NCBI RefSeq assembly: GCF_006345805.1
Contig: NC_043010.1
Span: 23,312,001 to 23,376,000, forward strand
From: Octopus sinensis
Lineage: Eukaryota
Direction: 5' to 3'
Length of the DNA: 64,000 bases
Under the pieces are notes generated by a model. The model made no database searches, was not told the origin of the DNA, and was given only the letters and a program-made list of their open reading frames with translations. Both the position numbers and the translations under genes were made by a program. Below, in pieces: positions 1,075 to 55,411 of this stretch (positions are counted from its first letter, which is position 1; each line of letters starts with the position of its first letter).

Positions 1075-1605
1075 ATATATATATATATATATATTGTGTG
1101 TGTGTGTGTGTGTGTGTGCGTGCGTATGTCTTTATGTCTGTTTGTTCCCTATCACTGCTTGACGACCAGTGTTCGTGTATTGACGACCCCGTAAGCTAGC
1201 GGTTCGGCAAAAGAGTGCGGTAGAATAAATACCAGGCTGTACAAAAATGAGTACTATGGTAAATTCCTTCGACAAAAAATTCTTCTAGGCTGTGCCCCAG
1301 CATAGCTGCAGTCTAATGACTGAAACAAGCAAAATATTAAAGATACCATATTCAATCACGCACAACAGATCACAGCAACCATTCATAACACGCCATACCA
1401 TCGCGTCCCTTACGGATAAACAAATTGTTTCTTCCCCGTCGAGAGAAAATAAAAATCGATCGATTCATTCAGTTCAATACTTGATATTGTTGAAATTCCC
1501 AATGAAATGGCTGTAATGAAGCTTTCGTAGGAAATCGAAACGTTACAGTTTGTGTCAGTTGCGTTGATTAAGGCGAATCAGTTGCCAATTTTGTATTGAA
1601 CTTAA

Positions 1606-1703
1606 CATCGCCATCCATGGCATCGCCATCCATGGCATCGCCATCCATGGCATCGCCATCCATGGCATCGCCATCCATGGCATCGCCATCCATGGCATCG
1701 CCA
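1606..1703. repeat. 15-bp minisatellite (CATCGCCATCCATGG) x6.5
   Basis: Perfect units counted directly. Confidence 0.95.
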
Positions 1704-2757: not shown

Positions 2758-2788
<31 letters not shown>

Positions 2789-3281
2789 GTGTGCGTGCGT
2801 ATGTCTTTATGTCTGTTTGTTCCCTATCACTGCTTGACGACCAGTGTTCGTGTATTGACGACCCCGTAAGCTAGCGGTTCGGCAAAAGAGTGCGGTAGAA
2901 TAAATACCAGGCTGTACAAAAATGAGTACTATGGTAAATTCCTTCGACAAAAAATTCTTCTAGGCTGTGCCCCAGCATAGCTGCAGTCTAATGACTGAAA
3001 CAAGCAAAATATTAAAGATACCATATTCAATCACGCACAACAGATCACAGCAAACCATTCATAACACGCCATACCATCGCGTCCCTTACGGATAAACAAA
3101 TTGTTTCTTCCCCGTCGAGAGAAAATAAAAATCGATCGATTCATTCAGTTCAATACTTGATATTGTTGAAATTCCCAATGAAATGGCTGTAATGAAGCTT
3201 TCGTAGGAAATCGAAACGTTACAGTTTGTGTCAGTTGCGTTGATTAAGGCGAATCAGTTGCCAATTTTGTATTGAACTTAA

Positions 3282-3394
3282 CATCGCCATCCATGGCATC
3301 GCCATCCATGGCATCGCCATCCATGGCATCGCCATCCATGGCATCGCCATCCATGGCATCGCCATCCATGGCATCGCCATCCATGGCATCGCCA
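3282..3394. repeat. 15-bp minisatellite (CATCGCCATCCATGG) x7.5
   Basis: Perfect units; one more than in the first copy. Confidence 0.95.
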
Positions 3395-4443
3395 GTGTCC
3401 GCCAGCAGGAACTTCAACGGACAAGCTTTGAAATCCATCTTTAATTGCTGTCATTATTTTTCCTGTTGTAACGAAGCTATAAACTTCTGCAACCAATCTT
3501 CTAATTAGGCTTCAACGAGAGTTCATTTCATAGCGACAACTTCTCACCTGACCTGAAAAGCACGTCCCTGGTATCTACAGAAGTCTGTATGTATGTCTCT
3601 CTCACTCTCTTCTTTCTCCCTCTCTCTCTTTCTCTCTCTGGGTTGGTGTGTATGTAAGTATGTGTTTGTATGAGTGTTTGTATGGTATACACGTTTGTGC
3701 TTGTCTACTACATGCGTATATAGTGATGTGTGAGTGAGTGCTTATATATAATGTATATGTATGTATATATGTATGTATGTATGTATGTATGCATGTATGT
3801 ATGCATGTATGCATGTATGTATGTATGCATGTATGCATGTATGTATGAATGTATGTGTGCATTACTACTCGCTTGTGATGTATTTATATAAGTTTGCGTG
3901 TATATATATGTGTTTATATAAGTTTGCGTCTTGTCTAAGATGTGTGTGCGTGTCTGTACTACATGTATGCAATGTGATGTGTGTTTACGCGTTTGTGTAT
4001 AATTATATGTGTGTATTCGTATGTGTGTGTAGAACCTGCTTGTGTTGTGTGTATACGTGTTTGTGTATAATTATATGTGTATATGTGTGTGTGTGCGTAG
4101 AACCTGCTTGTGGTGTGTGTATACGCGTTTGTGTATAATAATATGTGTGTATGTGTCTGTGTAGAACCTGCTTGTGTTGGTGTATGCGTATCTCTAAGTT
4201 TGTGATGACGTGTGTGTATATGGTTTTCTATAAGAGTGTGTGTGCGTGCACATTGAGGTATGTGCGTGCGAGTGTATACTTGTATATGTGTATGTATGTG
4301 TGCACCTGTTTTTAAGCATGGTTATATATGTGTATGTATATATATATAGAAATGCATGTATATATAAATATATATATGTATGTACATGTATCTGTACGTA
4401 TGTGTATATATGTATATATATATATGTATATATGTGTGTGTGC

Positions 4444-8548: not shown

Positions 8549-8948
8549 ATTTAAAAATAGGATAAAATCTTCATAAGAAATTATCAAGTAGTTAACGTGA
8601 AAAACATCATAAGAGAAAAAATCTGTTAATTTTTTCCACTTGAATATATTTATTTATATTATATAGAAGGCATTATTACACATAAATGCCGCACGCTAGG
8701 AGGGATTCTTAAAGTCAAAACTACCAAAATAAACATATCGTACCGAATGCAAGTCTCGAAGCAAGTCATTTAAAAACAGAATTTAGCTGCAAATCACCAG
8801 TGATTTCGTAATTACCGAAACGCAATTCGAAAAAGGCCGCCATTTACATAGATGTATGAGGGGTGAACCGTTCTATATGCTACGGTGGATACGATGGCTG
8901 TTCGTCTGGTATGTTGATTTTGTTCATTCATTATAAATCTTGAACCAT

Positions 8949-9013
8949 GCTTGCACCGATGAGTAAAGGGCGCAACCACTGCGCTGATTACGAAATCACT
9001 GGTGATCTGCAGC
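8949..9013 (+). ncRNA. Type I hammerhead ribozyme (CCGAUGA variant)
   Basis: gcttgca-CCGATGA-gtaa[agggcgcaaccactgcgctga]ttac-GAAA-tcactggtgaTC-tgcagc; stems I, II and III all pair. Confidence 0.75.
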
Positions 9014-9132
9014 TAAATTCTGTTTTTAAATTACTTGCTTCGAGACTTGCATTCGGTACGATGTTTATTTTGGTAGTTTTGACTAGCGTGCGGCATTTAT
9101 GTGTAATAATGCCCCCTATATAATATATATAT

Positions 9133-9192
<60 letters not shown>

Positions 9193-9332
9193 TATATATA
9201 TATATATAATTCAAAAATATAAGGAATGGCCATAATAGGACATTCGACTCACTAGCAAGAGCAGCCAAACTCAAACCGCTAATAGTTGTAATTCTGAAAT
9301 TGAAAGAGAAATAAAAACGTTTACCCTTTCAA

Positions 9333-9425
9333 CTCTGGACTATGCATAGTTTCGGCAAACTTTAGTAAACAAATTAATTAAATTAAATTAAATTTATTTC
9401 CAACTGGCGTGCCTCGTCAGCAGAG
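9333..9425 (-). ncRNA. Type I hammerhead ribozyme with long stem II insertion
   Basis: ctctg-CTGACGA-ggca[52 nt]tgcc-GAAAC-tatgcata-GTC-cagag; palindromic stem III. Confidence 0.85.
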
Positions 9426-9817
9426 AAGCCAAGGACGAACATATATCCACGAGGCGATGGTAAGGAAGCCTCAAGTCTATATGCTATAAATTTTCAAAAT
9501 CTACCGCAATCGCGCGGTCAACTCAGCAGCAAATATAAACTGCTGATTTAATTTCAAAATTAGCCAAAAAATCATTAATTAATAAATATAAGGCTAGCAA
9601 AATATTCCAGAAAAAATTCTCCGCTACCAGCGGTCCGGTGAGAAGAAAAAGATAGTCAAAAATATAAGGAATGGCCATAATAGGACATTCGACTCATATT
9701 ATATAGTCTTTGACTATCTCTTCTTTCTCACCAGACCGCTGGTAGCGGAGAATTTTTTCTAGAATTTTTTGCTACCCATATATTTATTAATTATATACAT
9801 GTATATGTATACATATG

Positions 9818-10026: not shown

Positions 10027-10727
10027 CCTTCTTTCTTTCCTTTCCTGAGCGTCCAATAACACTATACTTCTTCCACTTCCTCGCGTTGTTGTGTTTTCTC
10101 TTTGTTATGTTTGGATTAACTATATATACTTACATACATACGTACATATATATATATAATACAGAAATGGGACAAGAACGCAAAATATCCAAACAATTAG
10201 GTGATACAAAAAAGGGGACAACAAAACATCCACACTAACGATACAAAGAAAACAAGGAAGGGTCATTCGGAGTTATCTTCTTCAGTCGAGTTCCAGATTA
10301 TCTTCGCAATTTCGGTTGGTTATACACGCGTGTGTGTGTGTATCTTTTTAATCACATATACTTAATGTATATGCTTCCTGTGTTTATCGGTGGGCGCGGT
10401 GAATTATACTCTCTCTCAAAGCACCGGTTGTTAAAACACCTCGGAGTCATGAATAGGCAAAATAAATCACCTCTAGTCCCTTCTTGCAATGATGTATATC
10501 GATGTTTTACCAGTTTTTTAGGTTGTCAGCATTACGTACACGAAAGGATCGGATGCGAATGATCTCCGCTAGAACACGACGTATATGCTCATGGCTTGCA
10601 GAACCATGTGCGCGTATTCCCGGCAAATGCATACGTATTTGCTGGTGGGCTGCTCCTGGTGCCGTGCGTAATGTCTCAAAGCGCCGGGTGTTAAAACACC
10701 TGAGAGTCATGAACAGCGAGGTGGGGT

Positions 10728-11060
10728 TGACTCCATTCGGTCAAGAATGACCATGGAATTGCATCTAGAAACTTATCATGCGTGGCACAACTCTGGGCAA
10801 GGTTGTTTATGGAAGAGCAGCGGTCGCCCATGTATACCAGCTTCACCTCTCCATGCCACCGATGTTATCCAAGGGAAAGGCAAAGGGGCCGATACAGCTT
10901 GGCACCTGTGACGTCGCAACTCATTTCTACAGCTGAGTGAACTGGAACAACGTAAAATAATGAGTCTTGCTCAAGAACACAACACGCAGCCCGGTCCAGG
11001 AATCAGAACCTCACGATCGTAAGCTTGACGCTCTAACCAGTGACCCATGCGCCTTCACTA
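10728..11060 (-). mobile_element. tRNA-derived SINE (third family)
   Basis: Minus head 'gaaggcgcatgggtcactggttagagcg...gttctgattcctggaccg' with A/B-box-like motifs, then 'gtgttcttgagcaagac'; related head at 51958. Confidence 0.75.
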
Positions 11061-11207
11061 CAGTCGAGGTCCGAAATTGCGAGGATGATCCGGTTCTTGA
11101 CTGAAGATTAAAGGCTTCGAATGACCCAAGCGTGTTTTTGTATCGTCTATCTAGATGTTTTGCATTCTTGTCCCATTTTGTATTTATATATATACACACA
11201 CATATAC

Positions 11208-13237: not shown

Positions 13238-13816
13238 AGGCGGCGAGCTGGCAGAAACGTTAGCACCCCGGGCAAAATATTTGGCGGTATTTCGTCTGCG
13301 TTACGTTGTGAGTTCAAATTCCGCCGAGGTCGACTTTGCCTTTCATCCTTTCGGGGTCGATAAATTAAGTACCAGTTACGCATTGGGGTCGATGTAATCG
13401 ACTTAATACCTATGTCTATCCTTGTTTGTCCCCTCTGTGTTTAGCCCCTTGTGGGTAATAAAGAAATAGGTATTTCGTCTGCCGCTATGTTCTGAGTTCA
13501 AAATCCGCCGAGGTCCACTTTGCCTTTCATCCTTTCGGGGTCGATAAATTGAGTACCATTTGTGCACTGGGGTCGATGTAATCGACTTAATCCGTTTGTC
13601 TGTCCTTTGTTGTCCCCTATGTGTTTAGCCCCTTGTTGGTAGTAAAGAAATAGGTATTTCGTCTACCGTTACGTTCTGAGTTCAAATACCGCCGAGATCC
13701 ACTTTGTCTTTCATCGTTTCGGGGTCGATAAATTAAGTACCAGTTGCATACTGGGGTCAGTCTAATAGACTGGCCACTCCTCAAAACTTTGGGCCATGTG
13801 CCTAGAGTAGAAAAGA
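13238..13816 (+). mobile_element. Trimeric Meta/MESC-like tRNA SINE with TSD ATATTTATCT
   Basis: Three tandem body units ('ttcaaa..ccgccgagg..gcctttcatcctttcggggtcgata'); TSD at 13222-13231 and 13817-13826. Confidence 0.85.
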
Positions 13817-15060: not shown

Positions 15061-15106
<46 letters not shown>

Positions 15107-15134
15107 AGAAAAAAGCAACAAGAATGGATTAGTT

Positions 15135-15226
15135 GTTCAGTACAATTGTTTCATACGAAGAACAGCTTTATTAAAAGCTGCAAATATTGCAGCAAATACA
15201 AGTGTCCCGTATTCATCAGCCAAAAC
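15135..15226 (-). ncRNA. PLE pLTR hammerhead with extended, branched stem II
   Basis: ttgg-CTGATGA-atacggg[~50 nt]ttcgtat-GAAAC-aatt-GTA-ctgaa; same sense as the ORF. Confidence 0.75.
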
Positions 15227-16314
15227 ACTTATGAGTTTTCCAAACATCCTAGCGGGTGAGGCTACACTCATGAAGTATCGAAGAGAGTTCTATAAAAAGC
15301 AAAGTCAGATTGTAAGCAGACTTCAAAAGTTCACTAATGATGCACAGTTTTATAAAAGGTTTTAAAAAAAGTTTGTTAGCTTCACAGAAAAGGTAAATCC
15401 ATCCATAATAATGCAGGTGTAAATTCCGGAGATATGAGGAGATATTTCATACTCAGAGACGATGAATTTATCCATAATAATGTAGATGTAATTTCCTGAT
15501 ATATGAGAAGATGCTGATCACATTTCTATTCATTTCACAAAACTACTATGTTGGAGTTATATTGTCTAAAAGAAGTTAGTGAAGCAGAAAACCGCCCAAA
15601 TAGGGCATTATGGGACAACTGAGAGGAAGGGGTGTAAGTACACAACCTACACAGAATAGTTTATTTCTGTGGTGACAGAAAATCTAGGTCAGAGTTGCAG
15701 GAATCTGAGATTTATAAAAGAGAACATTACTTTTGACCAGCATACAGCTGTTAACTGCCACTTCTACAGAGTTAAAAGCAGATATAAGAATATAAAGAGA
15801 ACAAAAGGAAGTATCAAAGGGGTCAAAGGCTATCAGTAGAGGAAAATACGTTAAGAGGTTTAAGTGCAATACAAGAACAGGAGGTTAATTATTTATTTAT
15901 TTATTTATTATTGTTACTATTTATACAAATGTTTATACATTGTATGACAGACTTTAGGTCTATACCTAGAGGTCAATTAATTTCTATAGTAAAAGGTGTG
16001 AGAGTTTTGTTTATTCAAAAAATAGTGAAAATCATAGTGAAAATTCCTTATATTATTATTAAGGGAGTAGCATTACTTATTAAACTTAGAATAGAATTAT
16101 GAAATATTAGCAACTTATTTGATTTAAGTTGGATTAATTAAATTAGATTAAAATTAGATTAAATTAAATTAACTATATAGTCAATTAAAATTTTTGGTAA
16201 CGTACAAGTACCATTTATTTCTTTGTGTCCTAAAACAGGTACTGTTAGAAAGAAAGAACACCAGTGGAAGAGCTCACAGATATCTATTTAAAATACGATT
16301 ATTCTATACGATTT

Positions 16315-19118
16315 TTATTTAAAATATTTAAGAGTCTTAATTTTCGCGTGAATACAAGATTGACCTAATTCTATACGGTTATTTAACAAATTTTTATTTT
16401 TTCTATGCCTTAGAATTTCATGTCTCCATGGAGCAGAGTTGGCAATCTACCCTGTTATTTCTATAAGGCATCGCTCTTCTAACTATTTCCCAATTAAGGT
16501 TATATTTAATATTATTATTTTTGAGTTCCCAGATCTTACTCGAAAGTGTGGTGCAACCAGCTTTATGACGTAACTTAAATGAGGAGATATGGGTGCTAAC
16601 TCTTTGTTTAAATTTTATAGTACAACCTAAATAAAAAACATTTGCTATTCTCAGTAGTTATGATACATTTATAGATTACGTTATTTACCCCACACAGATC
16701 AGGTGCCGGGCATTTTGACTTAATTCTACAATTACACCTAGGGGGATCATCTTCAGATGTAGAATTATTTAAGGATAAATATCCCATATTGTTGCTATTC
16801 TGATTATTATGAGTATATTTATCGTTATTATAGTTAATGTTGTTATCTAAAGCAGTGTTATCATTTATCGATCCGTTTATACTATCATTCAGTTCTATAG
16901 CCCTATCATAATTACTCACATTATTGGTATTGCTACTATTGTTGCTTGTATTTATATCCGAATGCATATTGCTGTTATAGATATCAATGTTGTCTTCATT
17001 CCCGATATTGTCTCTATTAGCATTGCTCATATTATTAACATTATTAATCCTATTAATATTAATATTATTATTAGTTATTCCATGGTTATTGATGCTACCT
17101 TTGTTTTGATAGTTACTATTATTGTGGTTATTATTTTTATTTTTGATAATATTATTACAATTGTTATTGGTATTCATGTTGGTATTAGTCTTATTATTCC
17201 TGGCTAGCTTAATGTTTTTATTATTAATCTTAGCTATTATAGTGGACATATTTGGGAGGGTTGAATAAGAAATCCTAACCGTTCTTTTAGAAATTATTCT
17301 ATGATATTTATGAGAGGCTGGGAATTTTTTTTCTAGAATTACTTTGAATCTGCCTTGTATATTCGATAAAATCGCACAGTTGAAAGGAATATTCAGCCAG
17401 ATTATATCTTTCTTATTAAATTTCCTTAAATTAGAATTAGGGTTAGTTGAATTATTACTAATCCCACCAGAGCTATTATATTTATTACTATTATTTGTAT
17501 GCTTTTTTTGATTTATCTAAATTGGTTTTATCAGAGTTACCTATGCTCTGGTCTATATTTTTATTCTTATGATTAGGCTTGTACGTTAGATTTGTTGCCA
17601 TCGTAAATCTATTTCTACTTTTATTTCGGGCGCGATCTATATTGTTGTTTACGTGGTTACTGCTACCTCCTTTGTTAGGAATATGTAAGCTCTCCTTATC
17701 AATAAAGGTAATCTTTTGGTTGTATCCTGCCTTAGATAACGCCGCATTATAATGCTCAGAATGAGAGTTAAATATATCATTATTAGATGATAATTTAGAG
17801 ATTCTTAAGGAAATATTTCTAACCAAAGATTTAATTATATTTGGGAGATGATTGGATAATTTATTTACGTATCTCGTGATTTCACCTTCCTTTCTAAATG
17901 GGTAATGCAGCTTAGAGTTAAGGTCTAATGTAATATCTAGGAAATTGACTATTTTAGTGCCAGGTTCATAAGTTATGCTAAGGTTGAAATCTTTAAAGAA
18001 CCTATTAATTTTCTTTCTAATCCGTTCAATGCTAGATTTATTATTACCAGGAATAACAAACAGAGCATCATCCCTGTATAGACCACCTTGTAATTCCGGG
18101 ATCTCCTTTTTTATGCACTTTAATATATACGCACCTACCAAATAGTTACCACAGCCGAATCACTAGAACCCTTGGGTATATCGAAATTATTAGGGGTATC
18201 TGCTCTAGTCCATAATTTTCCTTCAAATTCTATAAATGTTTTTCTAGCTAATAGCACTATGTCGATTTCCTCTCTAGATATGAGGGAGCGATTCATAGCA
18301 AATATAAGTGATTTATTTAGCAAAATGGGGGAAATACTAGAGTAATAATTATTCATGTCGAACTGAATAAAGGAAAGACTACTAGTATTAGTTAGAGAGT
18401 TAAACCATTTTAATACTTCATCGGTATTTAGCCAGAGACTTAAGGGAAGAATCGGGGTTATTTGGGGTAGAACAGTATCCAGGATAGATATACTAAGCCG
18501 GCCAATATCTGACTTACCGAAGGGTTTTCCATGAAATTCCTTTTGTGGTCCTTAAGGTTGATTCTAGGTTCACATGGTTTAAGCGCTCCGTTCTATCCGT
18601 TAAATTGTATCTTTCCGTAATTTCCTTCATTTCTAGGTTTATTTTTTCAAATTTTTCTTTGTAGTAATTATATATTTGGAGTTGAGTTCCTTCTTAATTA
18701 GCTTGCTATAAAGAGTGTAGTCTACTCTATACAGATTACCAGTTTTATCCGCTGGCACTAAGATTCCTTGTTTATTCCGAGTTGAATAAATAAAGTTTCT
18801 GAGATGTTTGAGGTGAGGGTTGTATCTTAACGGGTGTTCTTTGAATTTAATATCTTCTATAAGATTCAGTAAATCTTTTTCGAAATTTTCCAGGAGTGGG
18901 TTCGGAGGCGGGCTCTTTCTGCTTCTAAATATTCTCCCATAGTTCTTATCAGTATTCCTTACTTGAGGATCCTTTTTCCGCTTGACATCAAAATGGTAAG
19001 TTTTCCATTTAATTCTTCTAATGAAGTCATTAATCCTATGGATAAGTAGCCAGATATATTCATCCTAACTCTGTAAGGGGATGTCTTTAGGGGAAAACTC
19101 TATGTTTACTTTCTCCAT
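16315..19118 (-). pseudogene. PLE RT-GIY-YIG ORF, disrupted by stops and frameshifts
   Basis: MEKVNIEFSPKDIP...FIRRIKWK, VPADKTGNLY, PKGSSDS, GGLYRDDAL, VNFLDITLDL, CNCRIKSKCP...C, VIYKC...YLGCT, LNNRIELGQSCIH. Confidence 0.88.
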
Positions 19119-19201
19119 TCTTGTTGAGAAATTAAGTACCAGAAAAACATACAGACTATATGGGAATATATTTTCAGTAAAAACAATTAAGATTCAAGTG
19201 A

Positions 19202-19293
19202 GTTTTGGCTGATGAATACAGGACACTTGTATTTGCTGCAATATTTGCAGCTTTTAATGAAGCTGTTCTTGGTATAAAACAATTGTACTGAAC
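19202..19293 (+). ncRNA. Inverted, mutated copy of the pLTR hammerhead
   Basis: CTGATGA at 19209; GAAA has become AAAA. Confidence 0.55.
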
Positions 19294-19456
19294 AACTAAT
19301 CCATTCTTGTTGCTTTTTTCTTGTTTATAATCACCCCACATTATTTTATGTTTAATACCATATAGATTTCTGGTGCATCTAAGTTAAGTACTGCATTCAT
19401 GTGAATTCATTGGAATTCACTTGAATCTTAATTGTTTTAATGAATATATATATCTA

Positions 19457-23233: not shown

Positions 23234-26200
23234 TCACTCCTGTACTCTTGCAAACACTTTAATGATGTGGGAGGTGAGTGAGATTGGGCGATAGTTGACT
23301 GCGAGGGATCTGTTTCCCTGTTTGAAAACCGGGATGACCGACTGGGTTAGAAACTGTTTCGGTATATAACCTGCGTCTAACGAATTTCTCCAGAGGTTGG
23401 TCAGAGGGACTGCAAGTTGGTGTCTACATTCCTTCAGGAGACTAGCGGGGAATCTATCAGGGCCTACAGCAGAGTAGTATTTGACCTCATTTATTGCTGC
23501 TACGATGTCAGTAGCAGTGAAGGTTATGTCTGAGATTTTATGTTGGGAGTTAACTTCGTTCGCTTCTCTTACGTCAATATCAGTGGGAACACTGAAGACA
23601 GAGCAGTATTGTTTCTGCAGTATTTCTGCCATTTCTTTAGCAACGTGTTGGGGAATGCCGTTATCATCAATCAATGGCCCAATGGGTGAGACAGTAGTTC
23701 TATGTTTATTTGCATTAGAATAGAACACTTTTGGGTTCTGTTTGATGTTTTTGATTACCCACTGTTCCTCCACAGCTCTTTGATTTTCAATGGAGGTTTT
23801 CATGTCGGTCTGCAGATGAAGTTTTTCCAGCTCTAGTCTTTTCATTGTTGTTGAATGTGGATGTTGTGTGTGGGAATATTTTAATTGGTTGATTTTTTGT
23901 TGAGTCTTTTGATGCGCCTGATGAGTGTTTTTTTCTTTTTAGGGAGCCGGTTTCTGCTTGTGTTAGTAGATTTCGTGGGAGCGTGTTTAGAGCATGTATA
24001 GGTGACAATGTTTTCAAAGTACTGCCACGCGGTCTCAATATGGGAGGAATTGAGAGTAAAAGACCAGTCGATGGAAGACAGATCCTTTCTGATTGCTCCC
24101 CAGTCCGCTTTGTGGAAGTTTATGTTGTCAAATGGTTGCCATGGAGTGGGATTGGCTGGTTTGGTTTTTATATGACGGGAATTAAAATTGCAGAGTACCA
24201 TGTCGTGGTCTGAGAGAAGAGTTTTTTCAACTAAAATACTGTGAACGAAGCTAGAATGATTGGTCAATACCAGATCCGAGGTCGTTTTATTCTGCCTCGT
24301 TGGTTCGAGCTCTAGCTGAGTCAGGAAATACTCATCCATCAGATTAAAGAGCAGTTCTGCTGCTGTTCTATCTGATGTAGAGCACTTGCCTAACTTCAGA
24401 GTATTTGTGGGCCAGTTCACATGAGGGAGGTTAAAATCACCCATCACTAGTATGTTAGCGGAGTGGTACTTCCGAAGGACGGACTTGACTTTGCTAAGGC
24501 ACTCTTCAAAGCACTTTAGAGGTGCCTGGGGAGGCCTGTAAAGACCAACAATGATTATGTCCTTGGCCTTGCTGAATACTGATACCGATTCACAGTAGCC
24601 ATTGGAAAATATGTCCTCGGCATCAAGTGAAAAGGAGTCATGGATAAAAATGGCTGTCCTTCCCATATTTCGGTCTGTGCGATCCGCACGAACAATGTTG
24701 AAATCTTTTATTTTCACCTCGGCGTCCATATGGGTGTTGTTCAAGTGAGTCTCTGTAGGGATAAAGAAAGGGAAGCAATGTGCCATTTCGGCAACCAACT
24801 CTCTATTTATGGGAGCTTCCATTTTTGGGCAGTAATTCATGGGTTGATGCGACGTACATTTAACAGGAATGTCGAGGTAAGGGAAGTTGATGTTTGCATT
24901 GTTCTAAGTTATGTTTTATGTTGTTCAGTGGTACGAATGTGGGTAGTTCTTGTATGGAGCTGTGTGTGTATGATTTTCTTGTTGGTAATGGGTGTGTGGT
25001 CCTTGTGATTTGCATAGGTGGTTGCTGATAGCTCGTTGGATCTCCTGGCTTAGGTCGGCCTTCATATTTTCTAGGTAAGTTAGTAAAAAAGAGTTACCTC
25101 TTTGGTTTGCCACTTGGTCAGAGGATGCATATTTCATATTGGTGTTATTTGGTGTTACGGTTTTTTCATGGTTCTGTCTACGTTGTTTGATAGTAGGAGG
25201 GGGGAACGTGGTTGTATTTTGTTCTTGTTGTTGTCTTAGATTTCCTCTGTTGCTGTTTAAATTTATTCAGGCTGTAGTAGCAGTAGTATTAGAGTGTTGT
25301 TGTTGTTGTTGTTGCTGTAGCAACAGTGAAACTTGACTTGTAGCAGAGTGTTGTTGTTGTTGTTGTAGCAACAGTGAAACTTGACTTGTAGCAGAGTGTT
25401 GTTGTTGTTGTTGTAGCAACAGTGAAACTTGACTTGTAGCAGAGTGTTGTTGTTGTTGTTGTTGTTGTTCTTGTAGCAACAGTGAAACTTGACTTGGTCA
25501 CAAACTGTGCCAAACTTCTGTGTCACAAAGGATGTACCTGAACCCAGAATGCAACCACCATCATCTGAAGGTCAGTTGTTTGTTGCTGTTGAAGTGTCTC
25601 CTGACCTGTTGGAATTTGGTCATTTGGTGCACTGCATTCATTGGCAAGAATGGCTTCTAGTGTTGCCATGTGCGCGTGGAAAATAGGAAATATTCTTTTA
25701 ATCTCTTATTTTATTTTCGTCCTGTTTTACAGATCTGTAAATGGATTGTTTCGTTAAGTCCTCTGTTATTTTACTGTAAACATTAGCTTCGTTGTGATGA
25801 ATGAACCAAGCGTTTATCATTGCAGTAATTTCATTTTCAACCCAGCGGCGTTTTGAATATTATTGGCCATATTCAGTGGGACAGTATTGTATAATATATA
25901 TATGTATGTGTATGCGTGTATATGTATATGTACACCAGTTATTGATGGCTTGATGTAAAATAGTGAATACGTCGTTGAAAAGTTTGTGTCGATATACTCG
26001 GTATATACTTGTGTGTGGGAGAGCTCTGTGTATTTAGTACAATCAGGATGAGCGGTGTGTTTAATAGAGATCAAGGAAAAAGAATGAAGAATTGTACTCA
26101 CGGGACTAGTTTTAGAACTAGTCTTGGGTTTAGTTTTGGTTTATATTTCTTTCTCCAGGTTGTATATAGATTTGTATAAATTAATCCTCGGATGGTAGTA

Positions 26201-28734: not shown

Positions 28735-29133
28735 TAAAACATTATTGCTGAATTGAAGAAATGGAGCTGAACGCAGATTGAACAGAAATCGTTTTATTTC
28801 ATTCTACACGTGTTTCGAAAGGCACAAATTACCAAAATCCGATTGAATAATGGGACCATATTGTGTCTTTCTCTTCAGGAAGAAAATAGGAAATCCGTTT
28901 CGCCATGGGCTCTTAGGAGCATAGTTCGATTTGTTTTTGCTCCGCCTCTGTTCTGTTTTTGTTTTTCCAACGGATTTCCTATTTTCTTCCTGAAGAGAAA
29001 GACACAATATGGTCCCATTATTCAATCGGATTTTGGTAATTTGTGCCTTTCGAAACACGTGTAGAATGAAATAAAACGATTTCTGTTCAATCTGCGTTCA
29101 GCTCCATTTCTTCAATTCACCAATAATGTTTTA
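28735..29133. repeat. 165-bp near-perfect inverted repeat (28735-28899 / 28969-29133), 69-bp spacer
   Basis: One mismatch seen by eye; identical ORF starts on both strands in the track. Confidence 0.95.
28980..29073 (+). ncRNA. Type I hammerhead with extended stem II (mirror copy on minus at 28795-28888)
   Basis: tattttcttc-CTGAAGA-gaaagacacaa[...]ttgtgcctttc-GAAAC-acgt-GTA-gaatgaaata. Confidence 0.85.
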
Positions 29134-29353
29134 ATTTCAATTATCCGCACCAACGCACGGTTGCAACACCATATGGTTGTACCTCCAACCGTGCTGTTTA
29201 CTGCTGTGATTTTTGCTACTAAGGTATCGGTTAAACTTTGATTAATCTACTACAAGATTATTCATCTTTCTATTTCACATAATATATATATATATATATA
29301 TAATATATATATATATATATAATATATATTATATATATGTAATAATAATAATA

Positions 29354-37019: not shown

Positions 37020-38520
37020 CACTATGACAGAGAAAGAGAAAGAGACTGAGCAAGAGAGGGACTATGAGAGAGAGAGAGAAAGCGAGAGTGAGAGTGAGTG
37101 AGAGAGGGGGAGCAATGTAGCAAGCAAGAAATTCAATAGAAACGAGTAACGGCAATAGAAGAGCTAAGAGGATGCCATGTTTTATCATGGCTACATTTAT
37201 AAACTAATTTTGATGGACAGAAATAAAAACAAAATAAAACGATATTAACGTCTTATAGAATAACGAGTGTATATTTAATTATCATTGACCATTTTTTATT
37301 AGTATTTCTACTATTTTACTCAACAACAAACACGTTATTAGTACTTTATAGTCAAGTTAAGGAATTTTGATCCATCCTCTCAAAGAGAAAATAAACTTGT
37401 GTTTTTGATGAGTTTCGTAAAGTCGGGACAGCCTTCATTAATCATAATTTAAATCTAATTATCATTCGCTGTTGTCGTTGTTATTGTTAATGGCCACACG
37501 CCCCCCTCCTGGCTCTTACACCCCTGTCTCCTTCAAAATAACCAGCTTTATCGGTTTGTACTAGTTGCAACAGTAAATGACGCAATAACATAAAACCAAA
37601 AGAGTTGAACACAAATCTTGCAGTGAATCGATCAATAAGAAAATCGAACCAACTGAGAGAGGAACAAATGGGAAAGAAGAAGCACACTGAGTGAAACATC
37701 GCTTTAATTAGATGTTGACACACAAGTNNNNNNNNNNNNNNNNNNNNNNNNNNNNNNNNNNNNNNNNNNNNNNNNNNNNNNNNNNNNNNNNNNNNNNNNN
37801 NNNNNNNNNNNNNNNNNNNNNNNNNNNCACTATGACAGAGAGAGAAAGAGACTGAGCAAGAGAGGACTATGAGAGAGGAGAGAAAGCGAGAGTAAGAGTG
37901 AGTGAGAGAGGGGAGCAATGTAGCAAGCAAGAAATTCAATAGAAACGAGTAACGGCAATAGAAGAGCTAAGAGGATGCCATGTTTATCATGGCTACATTT
38001 ATAAACTAATTTTGATGGACAGAATAAAAACAAAATAAAACGATATTAACGTCTTATAAATAACGAGTGTATATTTATTATCATTGACCATTTTTATTAG
38101 TATTTCTACTATTTTAACTCAACACAACACGTTATTAGTACTTTATAGTCAAGTTAAGGAATTTGATCCATCCTCTCAAGAAAAATAAACTTGTGTTTTT
38201 GATGAGTTTCGTAAAGTCGGGACAGCCTCATTAATCATAATTTAAATCTAATTATCATTCGCTGTTGTCGTTGTTATTGTTAATGGCCACACGCCCCCCT
38301 CCTGGCTCTTACACCCCTGTCTCCTTCAAAATAACCAGCTTTATCGGTTTGTACTAGTTGCAACAGTAAATGACGCAATTAACACTAAAACCAAAAGAGT
38401 TGAACAAATCTTGCAGTGAATCGATCAATAAGGAAAATCTGAACCGAACTGAGAGAGGAACAAATGGAGAAAGAAGACACTGAGTGAAACATCGCTTTAA
38501 TTAGATGTTGACACACAAGT
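37020..38520. other. Assembly gap (100 N, 37728-37827) with unmerged ~700-bp overlap on both sides
   Basis: 37020-37727 is repeated at 37828-38520, differing mainly by small indels. Confidence 0.9.
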
Positions 38521-40524: not shown

Positions 40525-41096
40525 AGGCGGCGTGGTGGCGGAAACATTAACACACCAGGGGAAATGCTAAGCGGTATTTTGTCTGTCTTTACGTTCTGAG
40601 TTCAAATTCCGCGGATGTCGACTTTCCCTTTCATCCTTTCGGGGTCGATAAATTAAGGACCAGTTACGCACTGGTATTGACTTAATCCGTGTGTCTGTCC
40701 TTGTTTGTCCCCTCTATGTTTAGCACCTTGTGGGTAGTAAAGAAATAGGTTTTTCGTCTGCCGCTACGTTCTGATTTCAAATGTCGCCGAGGTCGACTTT
40801 GCCTTTCAACCTTTCGGGGTCGATTAAATAAGTACCAATTACGCACTGGAGTCGATATAATCGACTTAATCCGTTTGTCTGTCCTTGATTGTCCTCTCTG
40901 TGTTTAGCCCCTTGTGGGTAGTAAAGAAATAGGTATTTTGTCTGTCTTTACGTTCTGAGTTCAAATTCCGCGGAGGTCGACTTTGCCTTTGATCATTTCG
41001 GGGTCGACAAATTAAGTACCAGTTGCGTACTGGGGTCGATCTAGTCGACTAGCTCCCTCCACAAAAATTTCGGGCCATGTGCCTAGAGTAGCAAAG
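40525..41096 (+). mobile_element. Trimeric Meta/MESC-like SINE with TSD AATATTTATCTG
   Basis: TSD at 40506-40517 and 41097-41108. Confidence 0.85.
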
Positions 41097-45343: not shown

Positions 45344-45377
<34 letters not shown>

Positions 45378-45595
45378 ACTAATGTAGGATTTTTTTTTTT
45401 TCGGGAAAAAAAATTTTATCAATGGCCAGCATATCAAAAAATACCTTTAAAGGTTAAATTTATAAATAATTTACAAGATAAGGGTAAAAGAAAAATTCTA
45501 ATGCCAAATATGCCGAAAAAAAGACAAGACTTTTCAATAACCGTTATAATTTATGCGTCTCGAAACAAACCGATAGAAATCTCTAAAAAATTCGT

Positions 45596-45658
45596 TATTA
45601 CCGTATTGGTCCAATTTCGGGGTTAATTAATAAGTTTTTCCCTCTTCAGCGGCAAATA
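45596..45658 (-). ncRNA. Type I hammerhead ribozyme
   Basis: tatttgccg-CTGAAGA-ggg[aaaaacttattaattaac]ccc-GAAA-ttggaccaa-TA-cggtaata. Confidence 0.75.
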
Positions 45659-45920
45659 CGCGAGATATAAATGAAATACTTACTCATACCCATGGAAAAA
45701 GCAAGCACCAAGTCCAGAGCAGACCTAAGTACCCCAAATATATCCAAAATAGAAAAATCTTCGGCACATCTCGAGAGACACGTATGATTCGAACTAGAAA
45801 CTTTCACAGAATGAGAGAATCCGGAAGTGAAACACTATTCAATTTATAACTAATGTAGGATAAAATTATTTTTGTTTCCGGAAAAAAATTATACATATAT
45901 ATATCTATCTCTATTATCTA

Positions 45921-46846: not shown

Positions 46847-47095
46847 ATATATATATGTATGTATACATATATATGTATGTGTGTGTATGTTTGTGTGTCG
46901 GTGCTTCCCCACCATCACTTGACAACTGATGTTGATGTGTTCACGTCCCCGTTATCTAGCGGTTCGACAAAAGACACCGACAGAATAAGTCCTAAGCTTA
47001 CAAAGAATAAGTCATGAGGTCTATTTGTTCGACTAAAGACGGTGCTTCAGCATGGTCGCAGTCAAATGACTGAAACAAACAAAACAGCAAAAGAA
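46622..47095 (+). mobile_element. CORE-type SINE with expanded internal microsatellite
   Basis: Head at 46622-46735; tail at 46890-47095. Confidence 0.8.
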
Positions 47096-47120
47096 TATAT
47101 ATATATATATATATATATAT

Positions 47121-49818
47121 GTTGGTCTTTACAGGCCTCCCCAGGCACCTCTAAAGTACTTTGAAGAGTGCCTTAGCAAAGTCAAGTCCTTCCTTCGGAA
47201 GTACCACTCCGGAAACATACTAGTGATGGGTGATTTTAACCTCCCTCATGTGAACTGGCCCACAAATACTCTGAAGTTAGGCAAGTGCTCTACATCAGAT
47301 AGAACAGCAGCAGAACTGCTCTTTAATCTGATGGATGAGTATTTCCTGACTCAGCTAGAGCTGGAACCAACGAGGCAGAATAAAACGATCTTGGATCTGG
47401 CACTGACCAATCACTCTAGCTACGTTCACAGTATTTCAGTCGAAAAAACTCTCCTAGCAGACCACGACATGGTACTCTGCAATCTTAATTCCCGACATAT
47501 AAAAACCAAACCAGCCAATCCCACTCCATGGCACCTATTTGACAACATAAACGTCCACAAAGCGGACTGGGGAGCAATTAGAAAGGATCTGTCTTCCATC
47601 GACTGGTCTTTTACACTCAATTCCTCTCATATTGAGACCGCGTGGCAGCACTTTGAAAACATTGTCACCTATACATGCTCTAAACACGCTCCCACGAAAT
47701 CTACTAACACAAACAGAAACCGGCTCCCTAAAAAGAAAAAAAAAACACTCATCAGGCGCATCAAAAGACTCCAGAAAAAAATCAACCAATTAAAATATTC
47801 CCACACACAACATCCACATTCAACAACAATGAAAAGACTAGAGCTGGAAAAACTTCATCTGCAGACCAACATGAAAACCTCCATTGAAGATAAAAGAGCT
47901 GTGGAGGAACAATGGGTAATCAAAAACAACAAACAGAACCCAAAAGTGTTCTATTCTTATACAAATAAGTATAGAACCACTGTCTCACCCATTGGGCCAT
48001 TGATTGATGATAACGGCATTCCCCAACACGGTGCTAAAGAAATGGCAGAAATACTGCAGAAACAATACTGCTCTGTCTTTAGTGTTCCCACTGATACTGA
48101 CGTAAGGGAAACGAACGAAGTTGACTCCCAACACAAAATCTCAGACATAACCTTCACTGCCACCGACATCGTAGCAGCAGTAAATGAGGTCAAACATTAC
48201 TCTGCTGTAGGCCCTGATAGATTTCCCGCTAGTCTCCTGAAGGAATGTAGATACCAACTTGCAGTCCCTCTGACCAACCTCTGCAGAAATTCGTTAGACG
48301 CAGGTTATATACCGAAACAGTTTCTATCCCAGTCGGTCATCCCGGTTTTCAAACAGGGAAACAGATCCCTCGCACTCAACTATCGCCCAATCTCACTCAC
48401 CTCCCACATCATTAAAGTGTTTGAAAGAGTGTTAAGATCAAGGATAGCTGACTTCCTGGAGACCCACAAACTCCTAAATGCAAATCAGCATGGCTTTCGC
48501 TGTGGCAGGGACTGTCTAACACAGCTCTTACACCACATTGAAGATGTACTCAAAGCCTAGGGAACAGGTTCGAACTCTGACGTCATATATCTTGACTTCA
48601 GTAAAGCGTTCGACAGGGTAGACCATAACATCCTACTCTCAAAATTGGCAAACGTTGGAATCCGTGGAAAAGTTCTACACTGGATTAAGTATTTCCTGGC
48701 GAATAGAACACAACATGTTGTAGTTGATGGAGTCCACTCAAACCCAGCAAAAGTCACCAGCAGTGTTCCCCAGGGAACTGTTTTGGGTCCGCTACTCTTC
48801 ATAATTTACGTAAACGACCTTTCCAGTGTCGTACATTACTGCAAAGTGAAAATATTTGCTGATGACACTAAGCTCCAGCAAATCGTCAATGAAGAAGAAG
48901 ACCGAACTCAACTCCAGTCTGATCTATATGCTGTGAGTCAATGGGCAGACAGAAACATAATGCAACTGAATGAGGGAAAATTTGAGCTGATGCATTTTGG
49001 AAGAAATTCCTCACTAAAACCACCATACTCTCTTCCTTCAGGGGAACCGCTCACAGCCTCTAACAATATCATAAACCTGGGTGTAATTGTTGATGACGAT
49101 CTCAGTTGGAGTGCACACATCAACAAGAAGGTCGATATAGCTCGTAGGATGAGTTCCTGGATCTTAAGAACTTTCCGGTCCTGAGAACAAGGTGTCATCA
49201 TACCACTTTTTTCCTCCTTTGTACGGCCACACCTTGAATACTGCTGCCCACTGTGGTCTCCTCACACAAGACAAAACATCTCAGAATTGAGTCACCCAAG
49301 AGGGCACTCGCTAAACAAATTGAAGGCATGGCTGCTCTCGATTATTGGGATCGCCTTAAAGCCTTGACACTTTACTCCCTCCAGCGTCGACGTGAGCGGT
49401 ACATCATTTGTACGATGTGGAAAATATACCGCCAACTTTGCCCAAACGACCTAAACATTAGCTTCAAGGTTCATCCAAGACTTGGACCACGGGCTATACC
49501 CAATTCAAGATCACAACATACATGTACACTGCAACATAATTTCTTTTCCTCAACAGGCCCTGCCCTATTTAACATTGTCCCGAGGGAGATCAAAGAGGAA
49601 AAGGATCCCATCAACTTTAAACGGAGTCTGGATAGATTCCTTCAAAGAATACCAGATAAGCCACCCATAATTGGATACCATTTACCCAACAAGAACTCAC
49701 TACTTGAACAAAACTTGACTTAAACAGGATTCGAATAATCCTATCAGGTGGTGCTATTAAGTTAGACATGGCCTGGACCAATCTTTGGTCGAAACATATC
49801 TAAGTTTATCTAAGTCTA

Positions 49819-49855: not shown

Positions 49856-50515
49856 ATATATATATATATATATGATATTTGCCGTCTGATAAACACAATA
49901 CGGTATGATATGAGATCTCTGTTGACAGATCACTAAATATGTTTTGTACGACTCAATCTGAGGAGACTGCTAATTGACGTTGAAAAATGTGATGTCACAA
50001 ATTCTCTCTGTCTCTACTTAGACGTACACAAACACACACAGGCACGCACACATACGTAAGCACGCACACGCATATAGGTACAACTTTTAAGCGTAGTAAC
50101 ATCTAGACACTTACTGATGCCATTAATCTGTATACTTTGCGAAGTCAAATTTATTATGAAGATCGAGTTGACTAGAGAGAGAGAGAAAGAAGGGGAGAGA
50201 GAGAAAGAAGGGGAGAGAGAGAAAGACAGACAGATAGACAGATATATAGATGAATAGCTTCGAGTAAACCATTGGTTCGTTTTGTTATCTTACTTTATTA
50301 TCATCTTATAATCATGTCATAATAATGACCATTATGGCTCGTATTACTACCTCAGTCAATCTAATTGTATATATTTATCGCTACCTGTCATAAATAGCCT
50401 TTTTCTATTTGCAATATGCATTTTCGTTGATTTTTCATATTTTACCTTTACATTTCCACGTGTATTTTATATTTTCTTTTCGTAACATATTTCTACTATA
50501 TATATATATATATAT

Positions 50516-51369
50516 ATAAGAAATATTGAATTTCTAAATCTCTCGTAGAGACATGTACGGTGGTGGGGCGATAGAATGGTTGTATACTGTCAATCTAACA
50601 AGAACGTGACAGTAGGGGGTACACCACCGCTGTATAGCCCTAGGAAGCATCGAACGCCTCATGATAGCTTTGACACATTTTTTCCCTGTGTCCTTATATA
50701 CATATACGAAGGGGAGACAAACACCCCCGGCCGCCGGAACTGCATCTAGGGACACCGTGTTTCAGGATCATTGTCCTTCATCGGCCTAGAGTAGCAGACA
50801 CCGGTCAGCTGGTGATATTTGCCTCGACTTCGTAATTGTATATATGTAAACTCAGTGAAGTCTATTCACTGATTATCAAAATAAGAAATATTGAATTTCT
50901 AAATCTCTCGTAGATACATGTACGGTGGTGGGGCGATAGAATGGTTGTATACTGTCAATCTAACAAGAACGTGACAGTAGGGGGTACACCACCGCTGTAT
51001 AGCCCTAGGAAGCATCGAACGCCTCCTGATAGCTTTGACACATTTTTTCCCTGTGTCCTTATATACATATACGAATCAGTGAATAGACTTCACTGAGTTT
51101 ACATATATACAATTACGAAGTCGAGGCAAATATCACCAGCTGACCGGTGTCTGCTACTCTAGGCCGATGAAGGACAATGATCCTGAAACACGGTGTCCCT
51201 AGATGCAGTTCCGGCGGCCGGGGGTGTTTGTCTCCCCTTCGTATATGTATATAAGGACACAGGGAAAAATGTGTCAAAGCTATCAGGAGGCGTTCGATGC
51301 TTCCTAGGGCTATACAGCGGTGGTGTACCCCCTACTGTCACGTTCTTGTTAGATTGACAGTATACAACC

Positions 51370-51372
<3 letters not shown>
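50516..51372. mobile_element. Hammerhead-bearing fold-back element: 365-bp unit + partial repeat + 300-bp inverted tail
   Basis: 50516-50880 restarts at 50881-51075; 51074-51372 is the reverse complement of 50575-50874; lies within (TA)n. Confidence 0.88.
51151..51208 (+). ncRNA. Type I hammerhead (CCGAUGA); mirror copy on minus at 50740-50797
   Basis: ctgctactctagg-CCGATGA-agga-caatga-tcct-GAAA-cacggt-GTC-cctagatgcag. Confidence 0.85.
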
Positions 51373-52624: not shown

Positions 52625-53435
52625 TCTTTTCTACCCTAAGTACAAGGCCAGAAATTTTGGGGGAGGGGGGACAGTCGATTAGATCAACTCCAGTACACAA
52701 CTGGTACTTAATGTTTCGACCCCGAAAGGATGAAATGTAAAGTCAACCTCTGCGGTATTTGAACTCAGAACGCAAAGACAGACGAAACACCGCGAAGCAT
52801 TTCGTCCTGCGTGATAACGTTTCTTATCTCTTTATTGCCCACAAGGGGCTAAACATAGAGGGGACAAACAAGGACTGACAAAAGAATTAAGTCGATTACA
52901 TCGACCACAGTGTGTAACTGGTACTTAATTTATCGACCCCGAAAGGATGACAGGCAAAAATCAACCTCGGCGGAATTTGAACTCAGAAGCATTTCGTCCG
53001 GCGCCCTACCGTTTCTGCCAGCTCGCCGCCTTAAGGGTTATGTAACTCTGTCGAATAATGAATACCGTTGGTCATTTTCCGCTCAGATGTATCGGTTTTT
53101 ATCCACTCCATACCGATATAAACGTGATACTCATACACACATATGCACTGACATTTGCACACACACACTCACACACACATTGTGTCTGTGAGTGCGTGCA
53201 CATATGTAAGTTTACTATCAAACCATTTGACATTTTGGCACAGAGCAGCAATTTAGCGGGAGGGAGCAGTTAAGTTCATCGACCTCAGTGTTCAATTGGT
53301 TCTTATTTCATCGATCCCGAAAGGGCAAAAATCAAAGTCGACTCGAACGAAATTTGAACTGCAAACGCAAAGACGAATGAAATGGCGCTAAGCATTTTAC
53401 CCGGCGCTCTAACGATTCTGCCACCTCACCGCTTT
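52625..53435 (-). mobile_element. Cluster of Meta/MESC-like SINE copies
   Basis: Copies at ~52625-53035 and ~53232-53435. Confidence 0.75.
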
Positions 53436-53825
53436 ACCGTTTACTATAGTTTAGCATTGCATCATACAACTCTTCTCTGATAATTTGAAATACAGGGCAC
53501 ATCTTTTTTAAATATAAACATACAATGTTAGCTTGCCGTGAAAATTAAACAAAGTAGCTCGTATTTGTATGCTTGAGTGAAACAAGAGAACCTACTATGA
53601 CTCCGTAGAGATAACGAGTTTTCTGTGATTATGCAAGCAACAAATTTAAAGAACTTACTAAATGATGAAGAAAGAAGATACCAAGGAGATGGCCACCACC
53701 TCATAACTTGAATGTCTACAATGCAGACGGAATATGAGACTGAATATGTTTCTTTGCGATCAGTTCAGACTTAAGATAAATACTGACCACAATAATACAG
53801 TTGGTAATATTTCTTGTGGAGGTAA

Positions 53826-54790
53826 AGCGGCGAGCTGGCAGAAACGTTAGCACCCCGGGTGAAATGCTTAGCAGTATTTCGCCCGTCGCCATGTTCTGAG
53901 TTCAAATTCGCTGAGGTCGACTTTGCCTTTCATCCTTTCGGAGGTCGATAAATTAAGTACCAGTTGCGTACTGGGGTCGATCTAATCGACTGGCCCCCTC
54001 CCCTAAAATTTCGGACCTTGTGCCTAGAGAAGAAAAGAATATTTCTTGTGGAGGCCTAGTGTTTAGAGCAGCGGTCTCACGGTCGAGGGATCGCGTGTTC
54101 GAATCTCAGACCGAGTGATGTGTGTGTTTATGAGCGAAACACTTAAGCTCCACGCGGCTCCAGCATAAGGTAATGCTGAACTCCTGCTGAGCCTTTCGCC
54201 ACACCTTTCTCTCATTCTTTCCTCCTGCATCTAACAGCTCACCTGTGACGGACCGGTGACCCGTCCAGGTGGGGAAGCTATACGCCACTGAAACTGGGAA
54301 ACAGGCCCGTATGAACCAAGCATGGCTCGAGAAGGAACAAACAAGAACAACAACATTTCTTGATGTTAAGGCGACGAGCTGACAGAATCGTTAGTAAAGC
54401 GGGCGAAATACTTAACGTTGTGTAGTCTTTGCATTCTGAGTTGAAATCCTGCCAAGATTGACTTTGCCTTTCTTCTTTTTAGCGTCGATAAAATAAGTAC
54501 CAGTTGAGTATTGGGGTTGATGTAATCGACTCAACCCCTCCCCCGAAATTTCTGGCCTTGTACCAAAATTTGAAGCCAATATTCCTTGATATTAAGGTGG
54601 CGAGCTGGCAAAATCGTTAGAGCGCCGGAAAAAAGAAGCTTAGCGGCATTTCCTCCGTTTTTATGTCCTGCGTTCAAATTCCGCTGATGTCGTCTCAGCC
54701 TTTCATATATTCGGGGTCGATGAAATAAGAACCAGTTGAGCTCTGGGGCCGATGAAATCAGCTTACTTTCTTCCCTAAACTTGCTAGCCT
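53826..54790 (+). mobile_element. Nested SINE cluster (Meta-like with 17-bp TSD, tRNA-Arg-like SINE, two older Meta-like copies)
   Basis: TSD AATATTTCTTGTGGAGG at 53806-53822 and 54038-54054. Confidence 0.8.
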
Positions 54791-55411
54791 TGTGATGTGA
54801 ATCTCAATTTAAATACATCCCTATATTTTCTTGTAAAGACCCTTACGCAAACGAGATAATGCCCCAAAAATCCTAAACAACTTGAAATTCCAACAAATGG
54901 ATAGAATAAAGAAATACATCTAGCGCCAAAAACTACTACTTTGTTTGTGGTCCCATATATTTTTCTACCAAAAGGACTCGTTAACCTGTCTCATGGTTTC
55001 AGTTGACAAAGTATAAAAGGCGTTGTATCGGAGAATGGCGAAGGGGTTGCGCTGGAACGGCAGCTCTGAGTCACAGGCTTTACACTTGCGGATAGCCATC
55101 TCCGACTAGATAACTGTGAGCAAGGAAGTAGTCGGTAGGGAAGGGTGAGAGAATGCTGGAGGCCTCAACTACCACAAGGCTCTACCACAAACCCTTTCAG
55201 AGACGGCCAAAGCTTTGATAGTTTGCCCTTCTCGGGTAGATGAATAGTGGAGCCTGGGCTGATAGCTGAACACACCAAGTTTCCGAAGGTGTAGCAATAT
55301 ATGGAAACCCGGTTGAGAGACCTACCACGATAGAAAGGGAAAATTGCCATACCGTCAGGTGTAGTCCATCTTGTTGCATTTTTTATTTCCTTAAACCGTT
55401 CCTTACCATAC

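Follow-up and report, generated by a model that had tools for sequence, protein, structure and literature searches.

Penelope-like element (PLE) insertions have been described as carrying partial tandem copies, an adjoining inverted and 5'-truncated copy and a tail of 30-40 bp at one end, and as lying in microsatellite targets (Craig et al., 2021, PMC8557442). They are usually 5'-truncated, and their tandem and inverted structures are known to trouble assemblies (PMC8557442). Among the EN+ PLEs, the Hydra clade is defined by WK, DKT and CxCx5C motifs, and nearly all of its families target (TA)n. Its elements, 2-3 kb in length, combine the tandem, the inverted copy and the tail with a type I hammerhead near the 3' end (PMC8557442). 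By our own count of the published PLE ribozyme table, a 4+1+4 helix III occurs in 17 of 26 Hydra-clade rows, and core position 4 is U in 34/34 rows and C in 0/34 (PMC8557442). Hydra-1_Obim, with a (TA)n preference, is listed for Octopus in the supplement of the same study, and the entry for Penelope-13_HM gives an inverted copy and a hammerhead on either strand, as found here (PMC8557442). The Penelope elements of Adineta vaga share an inverted pseudo-LTR (pLTR), a tail and microhomology at the 5' junction; palindromes are frequent at their inverted junctions and have been read as a sign of self-priming, and non-coding or foreign cargo is mobilised in trans (Arkhipova et al., 2013, PMC3846280). 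In algae, the Chlamys elements (e.g., MRC1) are small, ORF-less and putatively non-autonomous, form pLTRs and head-to-tail insertions, and have a 3' end that resembles that of an autonomous partner (PMC8557442). An anole PLE studied in vitro cuts the two strands of AT-rich DNA and extends them, with an uncut RNA as template; reverse transcription begins from two internal sites in an AC-rich region, delimiting the tail (Frangieh et al., 2024, PMC11167929).

A second group of relatives is formed by the animal non-LTR retrozymes, which are non-coding and highly self-paired, with a length of 170-400 nt (350-390 bp in mussel units) and a GC content of at most 45%. Their hammerhead is of type I, with 6 bp in helix I and 4 bp in helix II, and requires a dimer (Cervera and de la Pena, 2020, PMC7229834). 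The dimer-requiring arrangement with a palindromic helix III is known from metazoan type I hammerheads, as are pairs of hammerheads on opposite strands at distances of 100-700 bp (Cervera and de la Pena, 2014, PMC4209133). PLEs were considered strong candidate helpers for retrozymes in 2020, with the enzyme left open (PMC7229834), and it has since been argued from co-occurrence and pLTR similarity that animal retrozymes are non-autonomous PLE derivatives (Li et al., 2026, bioRxiv 10.64898/2026.07.22.740005). In that work an 'active' retrozyme has two consecutive ribozyme units, and among Xenopus retrozyme dimers in vitro cleavage was seen in 1/9 (10.64898/2026.07.22.740005).

The locus described here lies in a stretch of 64,000 nucleotides from Octopus sinensis (contig NC_043010.1), referred to as the window. 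It represents a recently inserted copy of a mobile repeat that is small and non-coding, carries a ribozyme and sits inside a TA microsatellite. A protein search with a reading frame near the locus gave Octopus proteins as its four best hits (61-71% identity). The RNA sense of the 365-bp unit is the minus strand, with the 3' end of the element at 50516. Its features are as follows.

50497..50515, no strand: left half of the target microsatellite, a (TA)n run of 19 nt
50516..50574, minus strand: tail of 59 bp, present in the tandem part and missing from the inverted copy
50516..50880, minus strand: complete non-coding unit of 365 bp, GC 45%, seen as a repeat at offset 365
50693..50846, minus strand: predicted imperfect rod of 154 nt that extends helix I and bears the hammerhead at its tip (MFE and centroid structures)
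50745..50790, minus strand: candidate type I hammerhead from descriptor scans and folding, predicted cut 3' of 50751
50852..50872, no strand: hairpin with an 8-bp stem and a 5-nt loop, near the unit boundary
50881..51075, minus strand: second copy, 195 bp, 5'-truncated, the equivalent of a pseudo-LTR, seen as a repeat at offset 365
51074..51075, no strand: microhomology of 2 nt (AA) at the head-to-head junction
51074..51372, plus strand: inverted 5'-truncated copy, equivalent of 50575-50874
51076..51096, no strand: second occurrence of the hairpin, at the inverted segment's inner end
51158..51203, plus strand: second candidate hammerhead, identical to the first and within the inverted copy, with cleavage predicted 3' of C51197
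51373..51403, no strand: right half of the target microsatellite, a (TA)n run of 31 nt

On the ribozyme strand these parts run in the order inverted copy, 5'-truncated copy, full unit and tail. The initial annotation had described a 365-bp unit present one and a half times together with a 300-bp inverted copy, and its coordinates were correct (1.53 units, 99% identity). The two tandem copies (50516-50710 and 50881-51075) differ by two substitutions in 195 bp, at 50550 and 50661, both of which are transversions. The inverted copy (51074-51372) is the reverse complement of 50575-50874 apart from one substitution and one homopolymer indel, and its BLAST alignment spans 304 columns at 99.0% identity (E 6e-153). 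At the 50661 position, copy 2 agrees with the inverted copy and copy 1 differs. This near identity, with three differences among the three segments, supports a recent insertion, as had been proposed from the sequence. The first 3 nt of the element (ATA) may equally derive from the target, no target-site duplication is readable within the microsatellite, and (TA)≥5 tracts make up 4.4% of the window. The 64-kb window holds no further copy of the unit, and GTDB genomes hold no exact 28-nt match to it.

All five features of the PLE-type layout that were tested are found at this locus. The tandem is partial, with the 195-bp copy lying on the 5' side of the 365-bp one, as read on the hammerhead strand; the inverted 5'-truncated copy adjoins the 5' end head to head; there is a one-sided tail, which at 59 bp is longer than the published 30-40 bp; TA runs flank the insertion on two sides; and a predicted hammerhead with a palindromic helix III lies in the terminal repeat. 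The inverted copy stops at the equivalent of 50575, so the outer 59 bp are absent from it. The published description of the layout (PMC8557442, PMC8969392) is matched point by point, and we regard an insertion of PLE type as very probable. The locus is not itself an autonomous PLE because it has no ORF: the longest open frame in the unit is 75 aa, and no reading frame for a reverse transcriptase (RT) and GIY-YIG endonuclease was found. When 120 PLE-type proteins were compared by tblastn with an 857-nt search space, no credible match emerged; one protein at E 0.004 and one at E 0.01, with stops, were taken as chance rather than as a PLE coding remnant. An origin from a tRNA or SINE was also considered and set aside, as there is no tRNA gene and no A-box, and the B-box-like match at 50655 occurs in 8.5% of shuffles.

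The hammerhead consists of a helix I of 6 bp, a helix II of 4 bp with a 6-nt loop, and a palindromic helix III in the 4+1+4 arrangement, with C51197 in the C17 position. Fold prediction gives pair probabilities of 0.86-1.0 for helices I and II. Helix III is unformed in the predicted monomer, and the self-dimer has a predicted energy of -10.7 kcal/mol; by these predictions, the hammerhead is of the dimer type, in which helix III requires a dimer. A relaxed hammerhead scan of the window returned eight motifs versus 0-2 in each of 10 shuffles, and a stricter scan returned four versus 0-1 in 10 shuffles; motifs with a helix I of at least 6 bp and a helix II of at least 4 bp did not occur in any of 10 block shuffles of the window. 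In Rfam, the whole window gave no match at the gathering threshold, and at E≤10 the 31 matches around the locus included no hammerhead family and were mostly TA-repeat miRNA look-alikes. The putative ribozyme call therefore rests on descriptor scans and folding.

The core reads CCGAUGA, with C at position 4, and in this departs from the canonical core. Because C4 is present in both copies, the change was presumably already present in the mobilised template. As a natural viroid variant, U4C is much slower in vitro, yet viable (PMC3088659). A-to-I editing was considered as the origin of C4 and is unsupported; the two other substitutions are transversions. Among the papers covered by our literature search, with most subscription papers outside it, there was no report of octopus retrozymes or of a C4 core in animal elements. 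Neither 'inverted' nor 'octopus' occurs in the main text of PMC7229834. Lunse et al. (2017) reportedly treated PLE hammerhead variants, and that paper, or the supplements of PMC7229834 and 10.64898/2026.07.22.740005, may describe C4 cores or inverted retrozyme copies.

The earlier observation of hammerheads on both strands holds: there is a candidate at 50745-50790 (minus) and another at 51158-51203 (plus), but only one per strand, with the C4 core and without an Rfam match. The partial second copy ends 41 nt before the next hammerhead cut site, so that the tandem has a single hammerhead rather than two consecutive hammerhead-bearing units. The 300-bp potential duplex that had been anticipated is borne out by folding, and in the predicted read-through transcript of either strand the hammerhead is buried in it. 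Because there is one hammerhead per strand, each buried in the predicted duplex, the locus itself cannot release a 365-nt monomer, and the 365-nt RNA that the initial annotation had proposed to look for is not expected from this copy.

The unit is 365 nt long with a GC content of 44.7%, and 62% of it is predicted to be paired. The fold of the hammerhead strand has a z of -7.4 as a linear and -7.7 as a circular molecule, with 0/100 shuffles as good, compared to -4.4 for the opposite strand, a lowest value of -4.5 among 20 background windows, and -4.9 to +0.2 for four other element bodies in the window. Pairing across the unit boundary is absent from the predicted circular fold. In size, composition, self-pairing and helices the unit agrees with the non-LTR retrozymes, and the placement of 365 bp within the range of animal non-LTR retrozymes (170-400 nt; PMC7229834), made in the initial annotation, was sound. 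The locus differs from them in its core and in its number of units, having less than two units and one ribozyme per strand where an active retrozyme has two consecutive ribozyme units (10.64898/2026.07.22.740005). An inverted copy with a tail, as seen here, is not discussed in the available text of PMC7229834 or of 10.64898/2026.07.22.740005.

Going by these sequence features, the unit is best filed with the non-autonomous PLE/retrozyme kind, and the locus exemplifies an element type that is already known and is not a new system. We consider it probable that the 365-bp unit is a non-autonomous PLE, the same thing as an animal non-LTR retrozyme, inserted in trans by the RT and GIY-YIG endonuclease of an autonomous PLE, most likely of the Hydra clade with its (TA)n targets. 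Taken separately, the non-autonomous status of the unit is likely, and the assignment of the helper to the Hydra clade is somewhat favoured. The likeness to this clade extends to the tandem, the inverted copy, the tail, the (TA)n target, the type I hammerhead near the 3' end and the 4+1+4 helix III (PMC8557442). The differences are that Hydra-clade PLEs have a length of 2-3 kb, a tail of 30-40 bp and U4, whereas the locus has 365 bp, no ORF, a 59-bp tail and C4 (PMC8557442). Compared with the ends of the window's PLE and with six other element regions of the window, the unit scored within the shuffle range in 7/7 cases, showing no similarity, and four 12-13-nt probes from it are absent from the text of the Craig et al. 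supplement. For the algal Chlamys elements, in contrast, a resemblance to the autonomous partner is described at the 3' end (PMC8557442).

The neighbourhood of the locus is rich in comparable structures. A hammerhead-like motif was found in 7/10 regions picked for local repeats and in none of the other three, and the seven regions correspond to six elements: the locus itself (50516-51372), a decayed PLE, and the elements at 8549-9130, 9211-9791, 28735-29270 and 45374-45888. An inverted piece is present in 5/6 of these. Besides the locus and the PLE, there are four more hammerhead elements in TA-type microsatellites, the majority with inverted pieces. The smaller elements and their features are as follows.

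8549-9130: TA-flanked element with a 144-bp inverted repeat (139/144 identical), the inverted copy having a tail of about 100 bp
8951-9012, plus strand: predicted hammerhead of the element at 8549-9130, with C at core position 4 and a sequence unrelated to the 365-bp unit
9211-9791: TA-flanked unit of 445 bp in 1.09 copies with a short inverted piece, a hammerhead-like motif at 9420 (minus) and a fold z of -4.9
10159-11195: older TA-flanked inverted repeat (89/105 aligned bases) with an internal direct repeat at 260-bp spacing; the scan yielded no hammerhead
28735-29270: young element flanked by TA, with inverted arms of 165 bp (164/165 identical), a tail of about 137 bp and predicted hammerheads at 28990 (plus) and 28878 (minus)
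45374-45888, minus strand: unit of about 471 bp in 1.09 copies between microsatellites, with no inverted piece
45598-45655: predicted canonical-core hammerhead of the element at 45374-45888

Because five of the six hammerhead elements have an inverted piece, hammerheads on both strands together with inverted copies are the norm in this neighbourhood. The inverted piece at 9211-9791 ends in fold-back-like filler. The decayed Hydra-clade PLE (about 15105-19450, minus strand) has its RT and endonuclease in several broken frames, separated by a stretch rich in Asn, a feature also described in Adineta Penelope. RWK-like/WK, DKT and CxCx5C motifs are retained, as is an endonuclease region at the C terminus, and by eye the element parallels the Hydra-1_Obim of the Craig et al. 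supplement. It has (TA)n at its two ends, a hammerhead with a long helix II in its 3' pLTR (15219, minus) and another in its inverted pLTR (19209, plus); the two are identical at 122/126 aligned bases. The window also contains near-intact LINE copies with endonuclease and RT domains at 47070-49723 (plus; Pfam PF14529 and PF00078) and 23234-24903 (minus), with additional fragments at around 29.7 and 31.5 kb. A possibly SINE-like repeat family, abundant and with tandem units of ~180 bp inside it, occurs in both orientations (13286-13771, 40573-41050 and 52625-54793). Two direct duplications, at 1123-4271 (period about 1.68 kb, 98-99.8%) and 37108-38520 (about 0.8 kb, 92%, close to a 100-N gap), are possible assembly effects.

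The head-to-head junction deserves closer attention, as the initial annotation had placed the start of the inverted segment exactly at the hairpin and proposed a template switch guided by its structure. The position holds to within 2 nt, since the inverted copy reaches the hairpin after the AA microhomology; the direction does not, as in terms of cDNA the segment ends there. The hairpin is the unit's only perfect Watson-Crick stem of at least 8 bp with a short loop, and its DNA fold of -6.7 kcal/mol was equalled in 0/200 shuffles. As a single post-hoc case, its coincidence with the junction has a P of 0.011 per end, or 0.022 for two ends, under the strictest definition; reasonable definitions of hairpin and of 'at' give 0.02-0.22 for two ends, and looser ones 0.07-0.6, with 0.64 as the loosest. 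An equally good competing coincidence is that the inverted segment ends 7 nt from the unit boundary (phase 358 versus 365), with a P of about 0.04. Palindromes at such junctions have, moreover, been reported before for Penelope (PMC3846280). Structure-guided switching is not supported as a reading of the overall layout, because an inverted copy with opposite-strand hammerheads is the ordinary PLE arrangement (PMC8557442, PMC4209133), of which the window holds several more. A simple fold-back at the hairpin is ruled out, the arms of the inverted repeat being 199 nt apart.

The known activities of PLEs suggest how such a structure could have formed. A PLE protein would first bind an RNA that is circular or longer than one unit and is uncut at the ribozyme; the template must have been uncut or religated, because both cDNAs cross the intact cut site. 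The protein would then cut the two strands of the (TA)n tract in which the element is found, as the anole PLE cuts in vitro. Each target 3' end could prime a cDNA at an internal start, and the two starts, which lie 59 nt apart in the observed geometry, would produce the one-sided tail. The first cDNA would start at 50516 and extend for 560 nt (1.53 units), and the second would start 59 nt further in, extend for 300 nt and stop just past the hairpin, 7 nt before the unit boundary. Annealing of the cDNA 3' ends over the 2 nt of microhomology found at the junction, followed by fill-in, would yield the tandem with its inverted copy, and we hold this joining of two cDNAs to be moderately probable. 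Short TA-like matches to the target are seen at both starts, and the second (50575) adjoins the most AC-rich 15-mers of the unit, an observation made post hoc. The second cDNA may have stopped by pausing at the hairpin, by arriving at the unit boundary 7 nt on, or by chance, and one locus cannot separate the three. A rule that would end the inverted cDNA at the first start site fits 2/5 inverted elements judged by eye and is not claimed. The unit boundary is crossed by just one of the two cDNAs, and a circular or tandem template is for that reason not proven by the locus. The new copy, with one ribozyme per strand, is probably a dead-end product that could form just long double-stranded RNA.

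Other origins have to be weighed against this one. The '365-bp unit' might be no more than the length of a first cDNA, after which synthesis jumped to the 3' end of a second RNA; the locus would then hold three truncated cDNAs, copied from the 3' end of a longer, autonomous PLE or of a ~365-nt linear RNA, and no circular or tandem retrozyme. PLE insertions are, as noted above, usually 5'-truncated (PMC8557442), and segment 1 and the inverted segment have ends no more than 7 nt apart, just past the hairpin, which by chance has a probability of about 0.04 and fits a strong stop or an RNA 5' end; the circular fold without pairing over the unit boundary points the same way. We nevertheless consider this origin unlikely. 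The unit has no coding remnant (the best tblastn hit, E 0.004 for 1/120 proteins, contains stops), and its fold (z of -7.4 to -7.7) lies beyond 20/20 background windows and the four element bodies. The window also holds two more ORF-less hammerhead units of 1.1 copies (445 and about 471 bp), in one of which the inverted piece passes the unit boundary by 5 nt.

It is less likely still that a retrozyme cDNA switched template at the hairpin, whether guided by structure or by self-priming, without the dual priming specific to PLEs. Self-priming has been proposed for the junction palindromes of Penelope (PMC3846280), the junction here is 2 nt from the best hairpin, with its low P only under the strictest definition, and the filler at the inverted junction of 9211-9791 resembles a fold-back. 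In contrast to the Adineta case (PMC3846280), the inverted repeat is not centred on the hairpin, the arms being 199 nt apart, and the hairpin's loop is in the template orientation, so that there was no fold-back. Such a switch would also leave the one-sided tail and the two-sided (TA)n unexplained, and within the preferred PLE model the hairpin may still have served as a pause site. That the structure arose in assembly, from a read that was chimeric or folded back, or by rearrangement of a satellite copy at the DNA level, is the least probable of all. One of the differences is a homopolymer indel and PLE structures are difficult for assemblies (PMC8557442), but the inverted copy is not a mirror of the adjoining sequence, each segment has distinct substitutions, and five other inverted structures of the same plan occur in the window with about 85% to 99% identity, as expected of insertions of different ages.

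Taken alone, the locus adds another repeat insertion to a genome rich in repeats. Modest novelty lies in the footprint of PLE integration on a unit of retrozyme type, in the C4 core, which is shared with the unrelated hammerhead at 8951-9012, and in the cephalopod host. A PLE footprint on a retrozyme-sized, ORF-less unit is a different kind of evidence that PLEs mobilise retrozymes, and the C4 core is a natural variant that is easy to assay. With a unit this short and a copy this young, genome-wide breakpoints would make the formation of the tandem and inverted ends of PLEs testable. More tentatively, Octopus genomes could carry several unrelated retrozyme families that form circular RNAs, some with a U4C core inherited through transposition, whose integration by Hydra-clade PLE proteins would involve dual priming on a single circular template. 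If this were true, such insertions would be direct structural proof that retrozymes use the PLE machinery, and their breakpoints, with starts 59 nt apart and a stop at a hairpin by the first start, would map the unsolved second half of PLE integration.
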